From the IMG/VR virus record IMGVR_UViG_2513237219_000005, positions 1 to 42,471 of that record: a stretch of DNA of 42,471 nucleotides. One strand, given 5' to 3'. This DNA comes from a virus (Duplodnaviria > Heunggongvirae > Uroviricota > Caudoviricetes). The position numbers and the translations under genes were made by a program. Every line of letters starts with the position of its first letter. Position 1 is the stretch's first letter. Positions 550-2,817 of the stretch are shown here, piece after piece. The notes beneath the pieces were generated by a model. It was given only the letters and a program-made list of their open reading frames with translations. It did no database searches and was not told the DNA's origin.

Positions 550-608
550 GGGATTTCTCCTGTTATGAAAACAGGAGAAACGGCGAAGCATCACCAGATT
601 TTTGATGG

Positions 609-634
609 TTATAAAAAGGTTGGTTTGGGAGAAG
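609..634. other. hix/gix-like crossover site (left), TTATAAAAAGG-TT-GGTTTGGGAGAA
   Basis: 14 bp TTGGTTTGGGAGAA (620-633) recurs as a perfect inverted copy at 2518-2531. Two 12-bp half-sites around a 2-bp core, as in Hin/Gin sites; the outer half is degenerate. Confidence 0.75.
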
Positions 635-972
635 CGGCTAAAAGGAATGTAGGGACAGGGGCGAATCAGATACCTGATATGGGTAGCTTCACGCTTTCTG
701 TTTCAGGTACTGGATATCAAAAATTACCATCAGGTTTTATTCTTCAGTGGGGCTCAATCGGCGCACCAGGCATTGCACAGGATGTAGTAACCCATTTCCC
801 GATTGCATTTCCAAACAGATGTCTGCGTGTTTTGGTCTCACAAGACTACACACCAGATAGCGGGGCTGTTGGTTATATTGCCTGTGCAGGTTTTAGTCCC
901 GACCCGGTTAAATTTATATCCAGAGCCAGTACTCCTGGCCTCGGCGCTTCATTTTTAGCGTTAGGCTGTTAA
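622..972 (+). CDS. Alternative tail fibre C-terminal domain, promoterless and start-less cassette, silent in this orientation
   Basis: Track ORF 565..972 reads the repeat as V-G-L-G-E from codon 622. The tail fibre gene reads the inverted copy as L-G-L-G-E in its own frame, so inversion would fuse the constant N-terminus in frame to this cassette. Confidence 0.7.
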
Positions 973-993
973 TTTAGCTATATGGAGTTAAAA

Positions 994-1434
994 ATGAATT
1001 ACATATATTCCGCGACTACAAACTCTTTCTATCCGCTGGAGATGAAAGAGGATTACACTCAAGCTGACTCATGGCCAGATGATGCTGTTGAAGTTGATGA
1101 GCAAGTGTATATTGAGTTTTCCGGATTACCGCCGAAAGGAAAAATCCGTATCGCTGGAGAAAATGGTTTTCCTGCATGGTCTGAAATTCCACCACCAACA
1201 CATGAGGAACAGATTGCTGCAGCCGAACTGGAAAAGCAGCAACTGATTAATCAGGCCAACGATTATATGAACAGTAAACAATGGCCTGGTAAAGCGGCTA
1301 TTGGCCGGCTGAAAGGTGAGGAACTGGCGCAATATAATTTGTGGCTGGATTATCTGGACGCACTGGAACTGGTCGATACTTCCGGTGCGCCAGATATTGA
1401 ATGGCCTACGCCTCCGGCAGTTCAGGCCAGATGA
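994..1434 (+). CDS. Tail fibre assembly protein (alternative copy)
   Basis: Track ORF 982..1434; the ATG at 994 has GGAG 7 nt upstream. C-terminus (LWLDYLDALELVDTSGAPDIEWP) is typical of tail fibre assembly chaperones and paralogous to the protein at 1406-1999. Confidence 0.8.
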   Translation: MNYIYSATTNSFYPLEMKEDYTQADSWPDDAVEVDEQVYIEFSGLPPKGKIRIAGENGFPAWSEIPPPTHEEQIAAAELEKQQLINQANDYMNSKQWPGKAAIGRLKGEELAQYNLWLDYLDALELVDTSGAPDIEWPTPPAVQAR

Positions 1435-1999
1435 CGTCCGGCGCTGTGCTGGTATCTGTTGCCGTCACCGCGTCAATGTAATCCAGCACAGCGTTAAGTC
1501 GGGTGTTTTCTGGCTGCGTCAGCTTCCGCCCAGCCTGTAATTTCAGTTGAATCAGACTGATGGAAGCCATTGCAGCATCAATCAGCGACTGGCGCTGTGC
1601 TTCTGCCGCTTCTACTGCGGCGCTATGCTGTGCCTCGGTATCCGTCACCCATTTCTCACCATCCCATTTATCGTATGGCGTTAACGGTGAAAGCGTGACA
1701 TAACCGTCTTTGATGGCACCGATATAATCCACTGTAACAGCTGCGCCATTTTCAGTTGAGTAAACGGTCTCATTGCGATGGTCTTCTTCATGGCTCCATC
1801 CCTTACCCGTAAATACTGCCACTTTTCCCGGAATGTTTTCGCCCGGGTCAGTACCAGTGGAACAGGCGGGTATACTTACGCCAGTATTAATATATTCATC
1901 AGACCAGCCGGTATATTCATACGTTACTGCATTATAATAAAAACAACGCATATCGCCCGGCACTGTAGCCAGCCCATTTTCATCAAAAACAGGTTTCAT
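1406..1999 (-). CDS. Tail fibre assembly protein (expressed orientation)
   Basis: 197 aa; conserved C-terminal motif shared with the plus-strand copy; immediately downstream of the tail fibre gene. Confidence 0.85.
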   Translation of the reverse strand: MKPVFDENGLATVPGDMRCFYYNAVTYEYTGWSDEYINTGVSIPACSTGTDPGENIPGKVAVFTGKGWSHEEDHRNETVYSTENGAAVTVDYIGAIKDGYVTLSPLTPYDKWDGEKWVTDTEAQHSAAVEAAEAQRQSLIDAAMASISLIQLKLQAGRKLTQPENTRLNAVLDYIDAVTATDTSTAPDVIWPELPEA

Positions 2000-2817
2000 T
2001 ATTTAGCCCTCACCAGAAAGTTAAATGCAATATTTCGTGGACGGGTTTCTGTACCTACATGTCCACTAATTTCACCATAACGTTTAACACTACGAGAGCT
2101 AAGAGCTCGTAGTGAGGAAGGCACCTTAAGACCGGGTTCGTCCGTTTTAACTATTCCCCCGTCACCATATGTAGCCAGTATTCCTGGGTTTACTCCTTCC
2201 CGTGCACTTCCTGCAGCAAGCCCGTCCCCCGTCCACAATTCCATATTGTGTGCATGATCCATAATTGTGTGTGATTGCCCTGAAAGTAGGGTACGTCCGA
2301 CATCAATCCCGCGCCCATCATCCCAGATACGAATGAAATCACCCCGTGCGTCAGGTAATGCTAGCGCCGGAAACACTTTCGCCAGCACAGGGTAATCAGT
2401 GGCAGAGAATTTCGCGCCGTTGAACTTCAAAAACACCATACTGGACCAACTGTCGATTACAGTATTTGGCATTGCGGCGGACGGCCAGAAGAACGGAACG
2501 CCAATAGCTGGAGCACCTTCTCCCAAACCAAGGTTTGTGGTAATCGCTGTCGCCAGTTTTGCCACCAACCCGTCAACGTCACCATCATCGAGTGCGTCCA
2601 GTTCAGCGTTCGCGATAAACTGCCCCAAAACAGCCGCCATCGTGGACGGCTGGCGCAGTGCTTTACTGACCTGTGCGCTGGATGCTTTACCCGAGGAGAA
2701 CCCCTTCTTCAGGGCGGTGAGCGCCTCCCATTCCTCCTGCGAGGTAACATTTGCGTCAGTGTCTGTCGCAAACGCTTTAAAATCATTAGTTCCGGCCATT
2801 AAAGTAATCTCCCCCAT
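1999..2817 (-). CDS. Tail fibre protein, constant N-terminus (2817-2532) plus currently expressed variable C-terminus
   Basis: 272 aa; crossover site lies inside the gene (protein ...NLGLGEGAPAIG...). Confidence 0.85.
   Translation of the reverse strand: MGEITLMAGTNDFKAFATDTDANVTSQEEWEALTALKKGFSSGKASSAQVSKALRQPSTMAAVLGQFIANAELDALDDGDVDGLVAKLATAITTNLGLGEGAPAIGVPFFWPSAAMPNTVIDSWSSMVFLKFNGAKFSATDYPVLAKVFPALALPDARGDFIRIWDDGRGIDVGRTLLSGQSHTIMDHAHNMELWTGDGLAAGSAREGVNPGILATYGDGGIVKTDEPGLKVPSSLRALSSRSVKRYGEISGHVGTETRPRNIAFNFLVRAK
2518..2543. other. hix/gix-like crossover site (right), TTCTCCCAAACC-AA-GGTTTGTGGTAA
   Basis: Inverted copy of 620-633; both half-sites close to the Hin/Gin half-site consensus. 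Confidence 0.8.

Follow-up and report, generated by a model that had tools for sequence, protein, structure and literature searches.

A probable Pin-type inversion switch of tail-fibre host range in a complete prophage of Escherichia coli P12b

Introduction

Site-specific inversion that exchanges the ends of a phage tail fibre is already known as a kind of switch from the Mu G, P1 C and e14 P segments, and the C segment of P1 with its invertase Cin follows the same logic as the G segment of Mu with Gin. Invertases of the Din family rely on a cis-acting enhancer whose two Fis sites, spaced by 48 bp, are located towards the 5' end of the invertase gene. The mechanism described for Hin involves a Fis/enhancer invertasome and subunit rotation (PMC3798978). 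In the e14 P segment of E. coli K-12, the repeat of 14-16 bp, which has the same sequence as the repeat analysed here, is an experimentally proven crossover site (PMC12529663, PMC4272514), and other resident K-12 invertases, such as PinQ, act on the e14 sites in trans (PMC12529663).

The stretch of DNA analysed in this study (the window, 42,471 bp) is a complete 42-kb temperate myovirus prophage of E. coli P12b, situated beside yciI/tonB. Its gene set is complete, with terminase, portal, capsid, sheath, tape measure, baseplate, repressor and integrase, and the baseplate genes of the late tail operon lead into the fibre gene on the minus strand. An earlier note on this DNA had proposed a tail-fibre host-range switch of the Hin/Gin type near the left end of the window. 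From the comparative analysis presented here, the locus is understood as a Pin-type (Din-family) inversion switch that very probably is functional in P12b itself and there sets the host range of the prophage. The comparison of related genomes provides strong evidence for inversion at the repeats, and the locus uses the crossover sequence of e14 itself.

Results

Crossover sites

The inverted repeat from which the earlier note had started, a perfect 14-mer (TTGGTTTGGGAGAA) at 620-633 on the plus strand and at 2518-2531 on the minus strand, was confirmed by exact and mismatch-tolerant searches, which at up to 2 mismatches found just these two copies in the whole window of 42,471 bp. At 84% identity the repeat stretches to 25 nt (615-639 and 2512-2536), and a longer site pattern, AAACCNNGGTTTGGGAGAA with up to 3 mismatches, matched the two known loci alone (chance expectation 0.10). 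Further crossover sites, as in a Min-like multi-inversion system, were looked for with the site pattern across the window, and none was seen. Both 26-bp sites (Table 1) consist of 12-bp halves around the same TT core dinucleotide, have identical inner half-sites and stand in inverted relative orientation. The outer half-site on the fibre side, TTACCACAAACC, conforms to the gix/pix pattern TTnyCnnAAACC. That on the pin side, GTTATAAAAAGG, is degenerate, with GG instead of the expected CC, and it matches the family poorly; the Hin/Gin-like half-sites described previously are good matches in three of the four cases, the pin-side outer one being the exception. TTGGTTTGGGAGAA is the same 14-mer as found in both e14 sites of K-12, and it is translated G-L-G-E in both frames (..NLGLGEGAP.. 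in the fibre and ..VGLGEAAK.. in the silent cassette).

Table 1. Features of the invertible locus and its immediate flanks, in window coordinates.
Feature	Position	Strand	Properties
pin, 182-aa serine DNA invertase, phi80 PinL type	1..549	-	ATG 549-547, stop 1-3
Palindrome between pin and left site	553..581	-	12-pair hairpin on the pin mRNA strand
Pin-proximal leader	565..619	+	ATG outside the segment; frame shared with the cassette adjoining pin; ORF 565..972
Left (pin-side) 26-bp crossover site	608..633	+	GTTATAAAAAGG-TT-GGTTTGGGAGAA; shared 14-mer at 620-633
Cassette B, alternative C-terminus of the fibre, silent at present	620..972	+	Pfam Gp53-like_C 5.6e-15
TfaB, assembly chaperone of the cassette B tail fibre (146 aa)	994..1434	+	Caudo_TAP 8.4e-38; PHROG 188
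TfaA, assembly chaperone of the cassette A tail fibre (197 aa)	1406..1999	-	Caudo_TAP 2.1e-27; PHROG 105
Cassette A, currently expressed, collar-type fibre C-terminus	1999..2531	-	HxH motif; C-terminal ..RPRNIAFNFLVRAK
Right (fibre-side) 26-bp crossover site	2518..2543	-	Minus-strand reading TTACCACAAACC-TT-GGTTTGGGAGAA
Fibre constant N-terminus	2532..2799	-	90 aa before GLGE; PHROG 11303 tail fibre N-terminus
DUF2612/Phage_Wedge1 baseplate protein, directly upstream of fibre	2799..3479	-	Pfam DUF2612 7.2e-47

Fibre gene, alternative cassettes and chaperones

The fibre gene starts at 2799 with an ATG that shares its A with the TAA stop of the preceding gene (TAATG). Because this is the real start, the constant part has 90 aa before GLGE, or 94 when GLGE is included, and the length of 95 aa given earlier has to be corrected. 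Its description as unusually short is justified relative to Mu (~169 aa) but not relative to the e14 class, of which it is typical (StfP, 97 aa). The full 266-aa fibre protein is identical to AFG40691.1 of E. coli P12b. The constant N-terminus presumably docks onto the DUF2612/Phage_Wedge1 protein, whose gene is followed by Baseplate_J, sheath initiator and gpV-like genes.

Cassette A matches tail (collar) fibre proteins (PHROG 3100/523), with a weak match to Pfam Collar, shares 42% identity with K-12 StfE and is matched by the tip of T4 gp37 (2xgf, E = 1e-4), and TfaA is 63% identical to K-12 TfaE. Sequence matches of cassette B in the PDB are the short tail fibre gp92 (9zd7), 4mtm and the R1 pyocin fibre (6cxb); TfaB, 60% identical to K-12 TfaP, has GGAG 6 nt ahead of its ATG at 994, and it overlaps convergently with the 3' end of TfaA at 1406-1434. 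The two convergent sets of fibre C-terminus and chaperone expected from the earlier reading are present, each with Pfam and PHROG matches of its own. Inversion performed in silico fuses the constant N-terminus to cassette B in an uninterrupted, in-frame 206-aa fibre, as had been predicted. The locus thus comprises the parts by which an invertible tail fibre is recognised: a constant N-terminus that the segment does not include, exchangeable C-termini in frame with it, and a cognate chaperone behind each.

Invertase, upstream hairpin and enhancer region

The Hin/Gin/Pin-family invertase said to abut the left site was borne out by an end-to-end alignment of Pin with Mu Gin (3uj3/4m6f, E = 1e-56), in which Ser9 as well as R7, D64, R65 and R68 are present; 58 bp separate the gene from the left 26-bp site. 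With its Pfam Resolvase (3.6e-39) and HTH_7 domains (PHROG 125, DNA invertase), Pin has the make-up of the small serine recombinases of the Din family (~180-195 aa), namely an N-terminal domain with the catalytic Ser9/10 and a C-terminal HTH. Its identity is 94.5% to phi80 PinL, 55% to PinE and 51% to Gin, with a range of only 47-55% to the characterised invertases, and no experimental work on this PinL-type invertase was found in the literature. The exact protein sequence is present on at least 1000 contigs. A scan for a sigma-70-like promoter of pin found none, the number of matches not exceeding that in shuffled sequences. The palindrome ahead of pin forms a hairpin (minimum free energy -22.7 kcal/mol; z = -5.58 relative to 200 shuffled sequences) in which the AGGAGA Shine-Dalgarno sequence, 4 nt ahead of the pin ATG, is sequestered, and a hairpin of such strength over the ribosome-binding site probably keeps the output of Pin low. 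At the homologous place of phi80, the same palindrome is annotated as 'IR3'.

The 5' coding region of the invertase, for which a search for a Fis-bound enhancer had been suggested, was compared with the G-N13-C pair (centres at ~30 and ~78) that is common to gin, pinE and hin. The proximal 15-mer of pin (TATCAACAAACCACC) resembles the Fis-like site of these genes and the distal one (CAGCGGGTTGTGAGA) has neither G(-7) nor C(+7), each to be read with the degeneracy of Fis sites as a class in mind. A canonical enhancer is not recognisable at the homologous position.

Pin-proximal start codon

It had also been stated that the plus-strand cassette lacks a start of its own inside the segment. This is correct, yet an in-frame, non-conserved ATG lies outside the segment at 565, whose ORF yields 135 aa in the present orientation and 195 aa once inverted. 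In e14, the start of stfE corresponds to this leader. ATG 565 is without a Shine-Dalgarno sequence and sits in the loop of the hairpin described above. The run of A residues at 613-617 is A5 in the window and A6 in all relatives, including an NCTC assembly with an identical segment, and it is because of A6 that the ATG is out of frame there; the A5 run behind the in-frame ATG may stem from homopolymer variation or from an error in the sequencing.

Both orientations among relatives

Three loci in other E. coli assemblies (L029, L030 and L032, the flipped twins) have the same backbone, the same pin and the same yciI attachment site as the window, and carry the interior of the segment on the opposite strand. 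Their pin flank (99.5-99.7% identity) and their constant region with baseplate genes (96.4%) are collinear with the window, whereas the interior (97%) is reversed; the breakpoints fall at the repeats, and the outer half-sites have swapped their partners. The flipped twins share the degenerate half-site (ttataaaaaagg), the hairpin and a pin that is 99.5-99.7% identical, and all three elements are on that account compatible with inversion. The flipped twins encode the predicted 206-aa fibre, which a homology search found in full length, at 99% identity, on 18 contigs or more; exact-sequence queries with the predicted fibre and with the products of the two pin-proximal ORFs had given no match. 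Citrobacter phage Omnitron and E. coli G3/10 exhibit the same discordance of flank and interior as the flipped twins, and in these two, as in L029-L032, the constant part runs into a cassette of gp53-like type.

Copies of the 1,912-bp segment with 99.9-100% identity are also present in backbones of e14 type, of P2 type and of another kind. The e14 type (L001 against L002 and L026) and the P2 type (L021 and L023 against L019) each include examples of either orientation, with the outer half-sites unchanged. In the window's own backbone, the 100%-identical segment has the window's orientation in all five assemblies. Both orientations, the mark of a Din-family switch, were accordingly found at the level of the lineage, by comparison of assemblies. 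When 5,426 complete E. coli genomes were searched with 300-nt junction queries at a coverage of at least 80%, the junction of the constant part with cassette A had no match and that with cassette B had one; the window's constant region is rare among these genomes. The pin-side junction queries gave 4 and 8 matches, with both cassette types beside this pin, at an identity of only 87-92%.

Contigs shorter than 2 kb made up 14 of 35 blocks carrying TfaA, compared to 2 of 28 for the baseplate protein. This excess is only a hint of mixed orientation in reads, for the presence of the same segment in two prophages of one genome would produce it too.

Discussion

In the present state of the functional switch that we propose, the constant 90 codons (2799..2532) continue into the collar-type cassette A, followed by TfaA. 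By analogy to the family mechanism, Pin dimers would bind both sites and then synapse; Ser9 would cleave at the central TT/AA dinucleotide, and half of the tetramer would turn by 180 degrees, so that religation leaves the segment flipped. Assistance from Fis and an enhancer is probable, as for Hin, Gin, Cin and Pin. In the flipped state, the late promoter and the constant part would drive cassette B and TfaB, leaving cassette A and TfaA promoter-less and start-less. From such flipping it would follow that the virions released by a population of lysogens are mixed, some having one receptor specificity and some the other.

Of the other readings considered, one comes close to impossible, in which two unrelated convergent fibre genes merely happen to share an inverted repeat and never recombine: the shortness of the exact repeat (14 bp) is all that can be said for it, and the repeat is unique in the window, equals the proven sites of e14 and lies in frame on both sides. 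It is refuted by the orientation breakpoints in many genomes, which fall exactly on the repeat. A more serious contender, though unlikely, is that the switch flipped in the past of the lineage and no longer does so at a useful rate in P12b. The degenerate outer half-site and the non-canonical distal Fis position would fit with it, as would the strong hairpin over the Shine-Dalgarno sequence of pin, for which no promoter was recognised. The uniform orientation of the identical segment in all five assemblies of this backbone that carry it points the same way, and so does phi80, where a pin of the same type is left with just a cassette fragment. Such locking would come from degeneracy of the pin-side half-site and the enhancer, or from a Pin that is hardly made. 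Half-site ttataaaaaagg, the hairpin and a near-identical pin are, however, shared with the flipped twins; the Pin protein is intact, with its exact sequence so widely distributed; and K-12 PinQ, 38% identical to PinE, inverts the same sites in trans (PMC12529663).

The switch might also, or instead, serve the host as a phase-variable anti-phage device, in which the pin-proximal ORF provides a free, receptor-masking protein akin to StfE2. The frame that ATG 565 shares with the silent cassette (135 aa, or 195 aa after inversion) and the analogous outside start of K-12 stfE invite this idea, and StfE2 of e14 is reported to block T2 adsorption (PMC12529663). The free receptor-binding domain would then be gp53-like at present and collar-type after inversion, masking receptors in either state. 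We consider this very improbable, since ATG 565 has no Shine-Dalgarno sequence and is enclosed in the hairpin loop, the sigma-70 scan revealed no promoter that faces the segment from the pin side, and the A6 run puts the ATG out of frame in every relative. The prophage being complete, a role in virion host range is enough to account for the switch. The role that this reading would assign to the hairpin at 553-581, as a regulatory element shared by ATG 565 and the pin ribosome-binding site, is just as hard to credit.

With the functional inversion switch as the preferred reading, the 'hypothetical/collar protein' and the neighbouring 'gp53-like' fragment in the P12b annotation are to be viewed as two states of one fibre gene, and differences in orientation between assemblies at this locus as biological rather than as misassemblies. 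Virions of both receptor specificities are probably released by the prophage. The discovery value is small, for invertible tail-fibre switches have been textbook knowledge since Mu G, P1 C and e14 P. The 1.9-kb segment is found, at 99.9-100% identity, flanked by four mutually unrelated constant regions on one side and as many different invertases on the other, and this sharing represents a clean case of fibre-module exchange whose limits lie exactly at the recombination sites.

Regarding phages with the same invertase type, the pinL region of phi80 (also of HK225 and mEp237) is closest on the pin side, with HK225 showing 99.7% nucleotide identity to positions 1-631 of the window. In phi80, an internal fragment of a collar-domain gene stands alone beside pinL, and a complete invertible segment is lacking. 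The closest sequenced phage genome is that of Omnitron (CP115737.1, unannotated), which covers the window to 87% at 95.6% identity, in the structural half. Omnitron has the same pin, 14-bp repeats and constant region but represents the other state, in which the constant part is joined to the gp53-like cassette and the collar cassette is silent beside pin; its cassettes have diverged.

Salmonella Hin with the H segment shares with the locus the invertase family and the 26-bp site architecture; unlike here, the hin gene is inside its own segment, and what is flipped is a promoter, with no exchange of coding ends. The Mu G segment agrees in having its invertase beside the segment, the constant N-terminus outside, and S/U and S'/U' oppositely oriented inside, and the half-site pattern TTnyCnnAAACC is common to gix and the window. 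The gix sites are perfect 26-mers with a GA/TC core, however, compared to TT/AA here, and the constant part of Mu has ~169 aa (959-1467 in L006) as opposed to 90 aa. The fibre C-termini of Mu and the window are without similarity; the C-terminal region of TfaB resembles Mu U' (31.5% identity, E = 2.4e-6), the sole chaperone match, and TfaA has none in Mu.

The P segment of K-12 e14 (stfP-tfaP-tfaE-stfE-pinE) has the identical crossover, TTGGTTTGGGAGAA(GG), with the same G-L-G-E codons. As here, its invertase is encoded outside the segment, ~60-70 bp from the site, and two convergent cassettes of C-terminus and chaperone are served by a constant part of ~90-97 aa. The differences lie around the segment. 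The window's Pin is no PinE orthologue (55% identity) but of the phi80 PinL type; its constant part gives no BLASTP match with that of StfP and is not of StfP type; the baseplate neighbour is YmfQ (Mu gp48-like) in K-12 e14, in contrast to DUF2612/Phage_Wedge1; and the pin-side outer half-site, the leader and the hairpin differ as well. e14 is a defective element at icd, the window a myovirus prophage that is complete and lies at yciI. The window's own segment is carried, at 99.9% identity, by e14 in other E. coli strains (L001). The closest family of invertase systems is that of e14 Pin, and not Hin or Gin.

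Results

The layout of the locus (table below), obtained from an ORF map and domain searches of the window, bears out the two convergent cassettes, each a fibre C-terminus with its chaperone, that the earlier note had described. The fibre start is ATG 2799; it shares bases with the TAA that ends the preceding gene and agrees with the deposited 266-aa protein, and the constant part therefore comprises 90 aa ahead of G-L-G-E, not the 95 aa counted initially. The joining itself stands: on re-inspection, in-silico inversion of 622-2529 yields an uninterrupted 206-aa ORF in which the constant N-terminus is fused in frame to the second C-terminus, so the description given in the note was correct. 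The genes of TfaA and TfaB converge with a 29-nt overlap at 1406-1434. An 18-nt inverted repeat (1344-1361 / 1470-1487) was rejected as a recombination site, as it reflects the chaperones' common C-terminal motif LDY(L/I)DA, encoded on opposite strands.

Features of the switch locus, with crossover sites of reference systems and e14 counterparts
Feature	Position	Strand	Site sequence (window and K-12: written towards segment) or e14 counterpart
pin	549..1	-	
Gap, pin to left site (58 bp)			
Left (pin-side) 26-bp site	608-633		GTTATAAAAAGG-TT-GGTTTGGGAGAA
Cassette B, gp53-like C-terminus	620-972	+	StfP C-terminus, 27% identity
TfaB	994-1434	+	TfaP, 60% identity
TfaA	1999-1406	-	TfaE, 63% identity
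Cassette A, collar-type C-terminus	2531-1999	-	StfE, 42% identity
Right (fibre-side) site	2518-2543		TTACCACAAACC-TT-GGTTTGGGAGAA
Constant fibre N-terminus	2799-2532	-	
DUF2612/Wedge1, Baseplate_J, sheath-initiator, gpV-like genes	beyond constant fibre N-terminus	all -	
K-12 pin-side site			TTTTCATAAACG-TT-GGTTTGGGAGAA
K-12 fibre-side site			CTCTCGAAAACC-TT-GGTTTGGGAGAA
Mu gix			TTATCCAAAACC-TC-GGTTTACAGGAA

The proposed 14-bp inverted repeat, TTGGTTTGGGAGAA at 620-633 with its reverse complement at 2518-2531, was recovered on reading the window and by a repeat finder, which extended it to 25 nt at 84% (615-639 / 2512-2536). With 2 mismatches allowed, these are the only 2 copies in all 42,471 bp, and the longer site pattern matches at the same two loci only (chance expectation, 0.10). 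Hin/Gin-like half-sites had been ascribed to both sites; three of the four fit TTnyCnnAAACC, the exception being the pin-side outer half, with GG in place of the expected CC. From the identical cores and the inverted arrangement of the sites, inversion is predicted. The pin-side half-site contains an A5 run (613-617) in the window (CP002291.1), and A6 in an NCTC assembly with identical segment (GCA_900448865.1) and in all other relatives; the difference moves the outer half-site by a single base and sets whether ATG 565 shares the frame of the silent cassette. The A5 of CP002291.1 may be a homopolymer sequencing error of an older assembly.

A Hin/Gin/Pin-family invertase does lie beside the left site: the pin product has Resolvase and HTH_7 domains (domain search), can be aligned over its whole length with structures of Mu Gin (E = 1e-56), retains in that alignment Ser9 as nucleophile together with the conserved arginines, and is 94.5% identical to phi80 PinL, 55% to e14 PinE and 51% to Gin. 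In gin, pinE and hin, two Fis-like G-N13-C 15-mers lie 48 bp apart in the CDS, with their centres near 30 and 78 nt. The pair agrees with what PMC3798978 describes for the Hin enhancer. In the window pin and phi80 pinL, the proximal 15-mer is similar and the distal one (CAGCGGGTTGTGAGA) is without both flanking G and C; Fis sites being degenerate in general, this pin may or may not carry a working enhancer. A promoter scan found no sigma-70-like promoter for pin. Its leader contains an 11-bp perfect palindrome (553-581), giving a 12-pair RNA hairpin (MFE -22.7 kcal/mol, z = -5.6) that buries the AGGAGA Shine-Dalgarno sequence 4 nt ahead of the pin ATG. phi80 has the palindrome too, under the annotation IR3, but e14 pinE lacks it in its upstream sequence. 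It may serve to throttle translation of the invertase or act as an operator; plausibly, the hairpin would hold Pin synthesis, and hence switching, rare.

Inversion was judged by comparing genomes and proteins of relatives. Citrobacter phage Omnitron and E. coli G3/10 have flanks in common with the window and the interior on the other strand, and the strand switch of the alignments falls inside the 14-mers. An exact-sequence look-up in the protein collection did not find the predicted 206-aa fibre; the collection protein P0046, itself exactly 206 aa long and encoded by at least 18 contigs, is 99% identical to it over the full length, and 6 more proteins are 96-99% identical. Three P0046 loci (L029, L030, L032) have the backbone of the window and the same yciI site. 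Their pin flank (1-634) is collinear with the window at 99.5-99.7% and their constant region plus baseplate (2517-5000) at 96.4%, whereas the interior is on the opposite strand (620-2040 at 97.0%, 2312-2531 at 96.4%) and partners are swapped between the two outer half-sites. The 1,912-bp segment recurs at 99.9-100% in another three backbones, whose invertases measure 184, 188 and 193 aa. Between the same outer half-sites, it is found in both orientations in the e14-type backbone (L001 versus L002/L026) and in the P2-type backbone (L021/L023 versus L019); in the window's backbone, the 100%-identical segment has the window orientation in 5/5 assemblies. Taken together, these comparisons show repeated past recombination at exactly these sites, also in loci with this pin and the degenerate pin-side half-site.

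Stand-alone segment contigs, carrying TfaA or fibre sequence, were also observed. Of 35 collection blocks with exact TfaA (1406-1999), 14 have it on no contig as long as 2 kb; for the flanking baseplate protein this is so in 2 of 28, and partial fibre proteins lie on contigs of 1,862 and 1,892 bp. Such contigs are expected if reads occur in both orientations, or if one genome has two prophages with the segment.

The near-identity of the whole segment (620-2531; loci L001, L002, L019, L021-L023, L026) spans four backbones, namely those of Wedge1 type, of e14/Mu-gp48 type, of P2 type (526-aa gpH) and one whose Hin-like invertase has 193 aa. Similarity between backbones stops exactly at the crossover sites, which points to a module exchanged recently between phages. 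Relatives of this prophage on five contigs with the identical DUF2612 protein seem to derive from the switch by deletion or fixation: two (L009, L014) have a single gp53-like cassette with chaperone, followed directly by a 187-aa invertase and integrase, and three (L007, L010, L013) have no invertase and adjoin ybhB/bioA. A 7-kb contig (L027, GCA_012602475.1) has the yciI-side pin locus, a G-to-A change in the pin-side repeat (TTGGTTTAGGAGAA) and a P2-type outer half-site (ttctcacatacc) at the other site; it may be a recombination product of two prophages' switch loci.

E. coli P12b encodes the exact fibre protein (AFG40691.1); the locus (L020) is at ~2.006-2.013 Mb of CP002291.1. The window extends from the pin stop codon to the integrase gene (41278-42471), the insertion adjoining yciI/tonB, and encodes terminase, portal, capsid, DUF3383 sheath, SLT-bearing tape measure and baseplate, as well as DnaB, replication O, a CI-like repressor and Dam methylase. 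This gene set, from terminase to integrase, makes it a complete temperate myovirus, with Citrobacter phage Omnitron as the closest sequenced phage (87% coverage, 95.6% identity). A small DUF4236 gene (5992-6282, +) sits amid minus-strand baseplate genes; in relatives the position is occupied by PhdYeFM and Fic genes as a pair or by other small genes, which makes it a moron slot of variable content. A 451-aa ORF of the early region (36099-37454, +), located between the CI-like repressor and exonuclease/AAA/Dam genes, contains a 60-bp unit repeated 16.7 times (core 36217-37217; 95% matches, no indels), encoding a 20-aa leucine-rich-repeat-like unit, LPDNLTVGG(W/S)LDL(R/E)GTSITA. Its GC of 0.70 (~0.5 nearby) accounts for long spurious opposite-strand ORFs.

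Discussion

The finding is real and its original interpretation right: the locus is a Pin/e14-type invertible tail-fibre switch, an ordinary example of a long-known mechanism. Of the alternative C-termini, cassette A has a collar region, an HxH motif and a ..RPRNIAFNFLVRAK tail, features found also in the T4 gp37 tip (2xgf, E = 1e-4) and StfE. Cassette B ends in a gp53-like domain and resembles in sequence a short tail fibre (9zd7), 4mtm and the R1 pyocin fibre foot (6cxb/6cl5), which suggests that its ligand could be of LPS type.

Cassette B has no start codon inside the segment, as had been noted. An in-frame ATG for it lies beyond the segment, at 565, and K-12 stfE likewise has an in-frame start outside its segment; the chimeric product, StfE2, was reported to block T2 adsorption (PMC12529663). 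An analogous defence role of the pin-proximal ORF is nevertheless highly improbable, since ATG 565 has no Shine-Dalgarno sequence, is located in the hairpin loop and is in frame solely through the window's A5, with every relative, the NCTC assembly included, having A6.

The published repeat of the e14 P segment is TTGGTTTGGGAGAAGG, and inversion of that segment by PinE and PinQ was documented by sequencing, PCR and qPCR (PMC12529663, PMC4272514). The window 14-mer is identical to both K-12 crossover sites, and the cassettes match part for part (table). The constant part, which the earlier note called unusually short, is so relative to Mu (~169 aa) but not to e14, which has 97 aa before GLGE. 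Unlike these shared elements, the constant N-terminus is without detectable similarity to StfP, and its baseplate neighbour is DUF2612/Wedge1 in the window but YmfQ in e14; the same switch module thus works with a baseplate-attachment domain that is unrelated. At this locus the switch is combined with a PinL-type invertase and a baseplate of Wedge1 type, and the prophage is complete.
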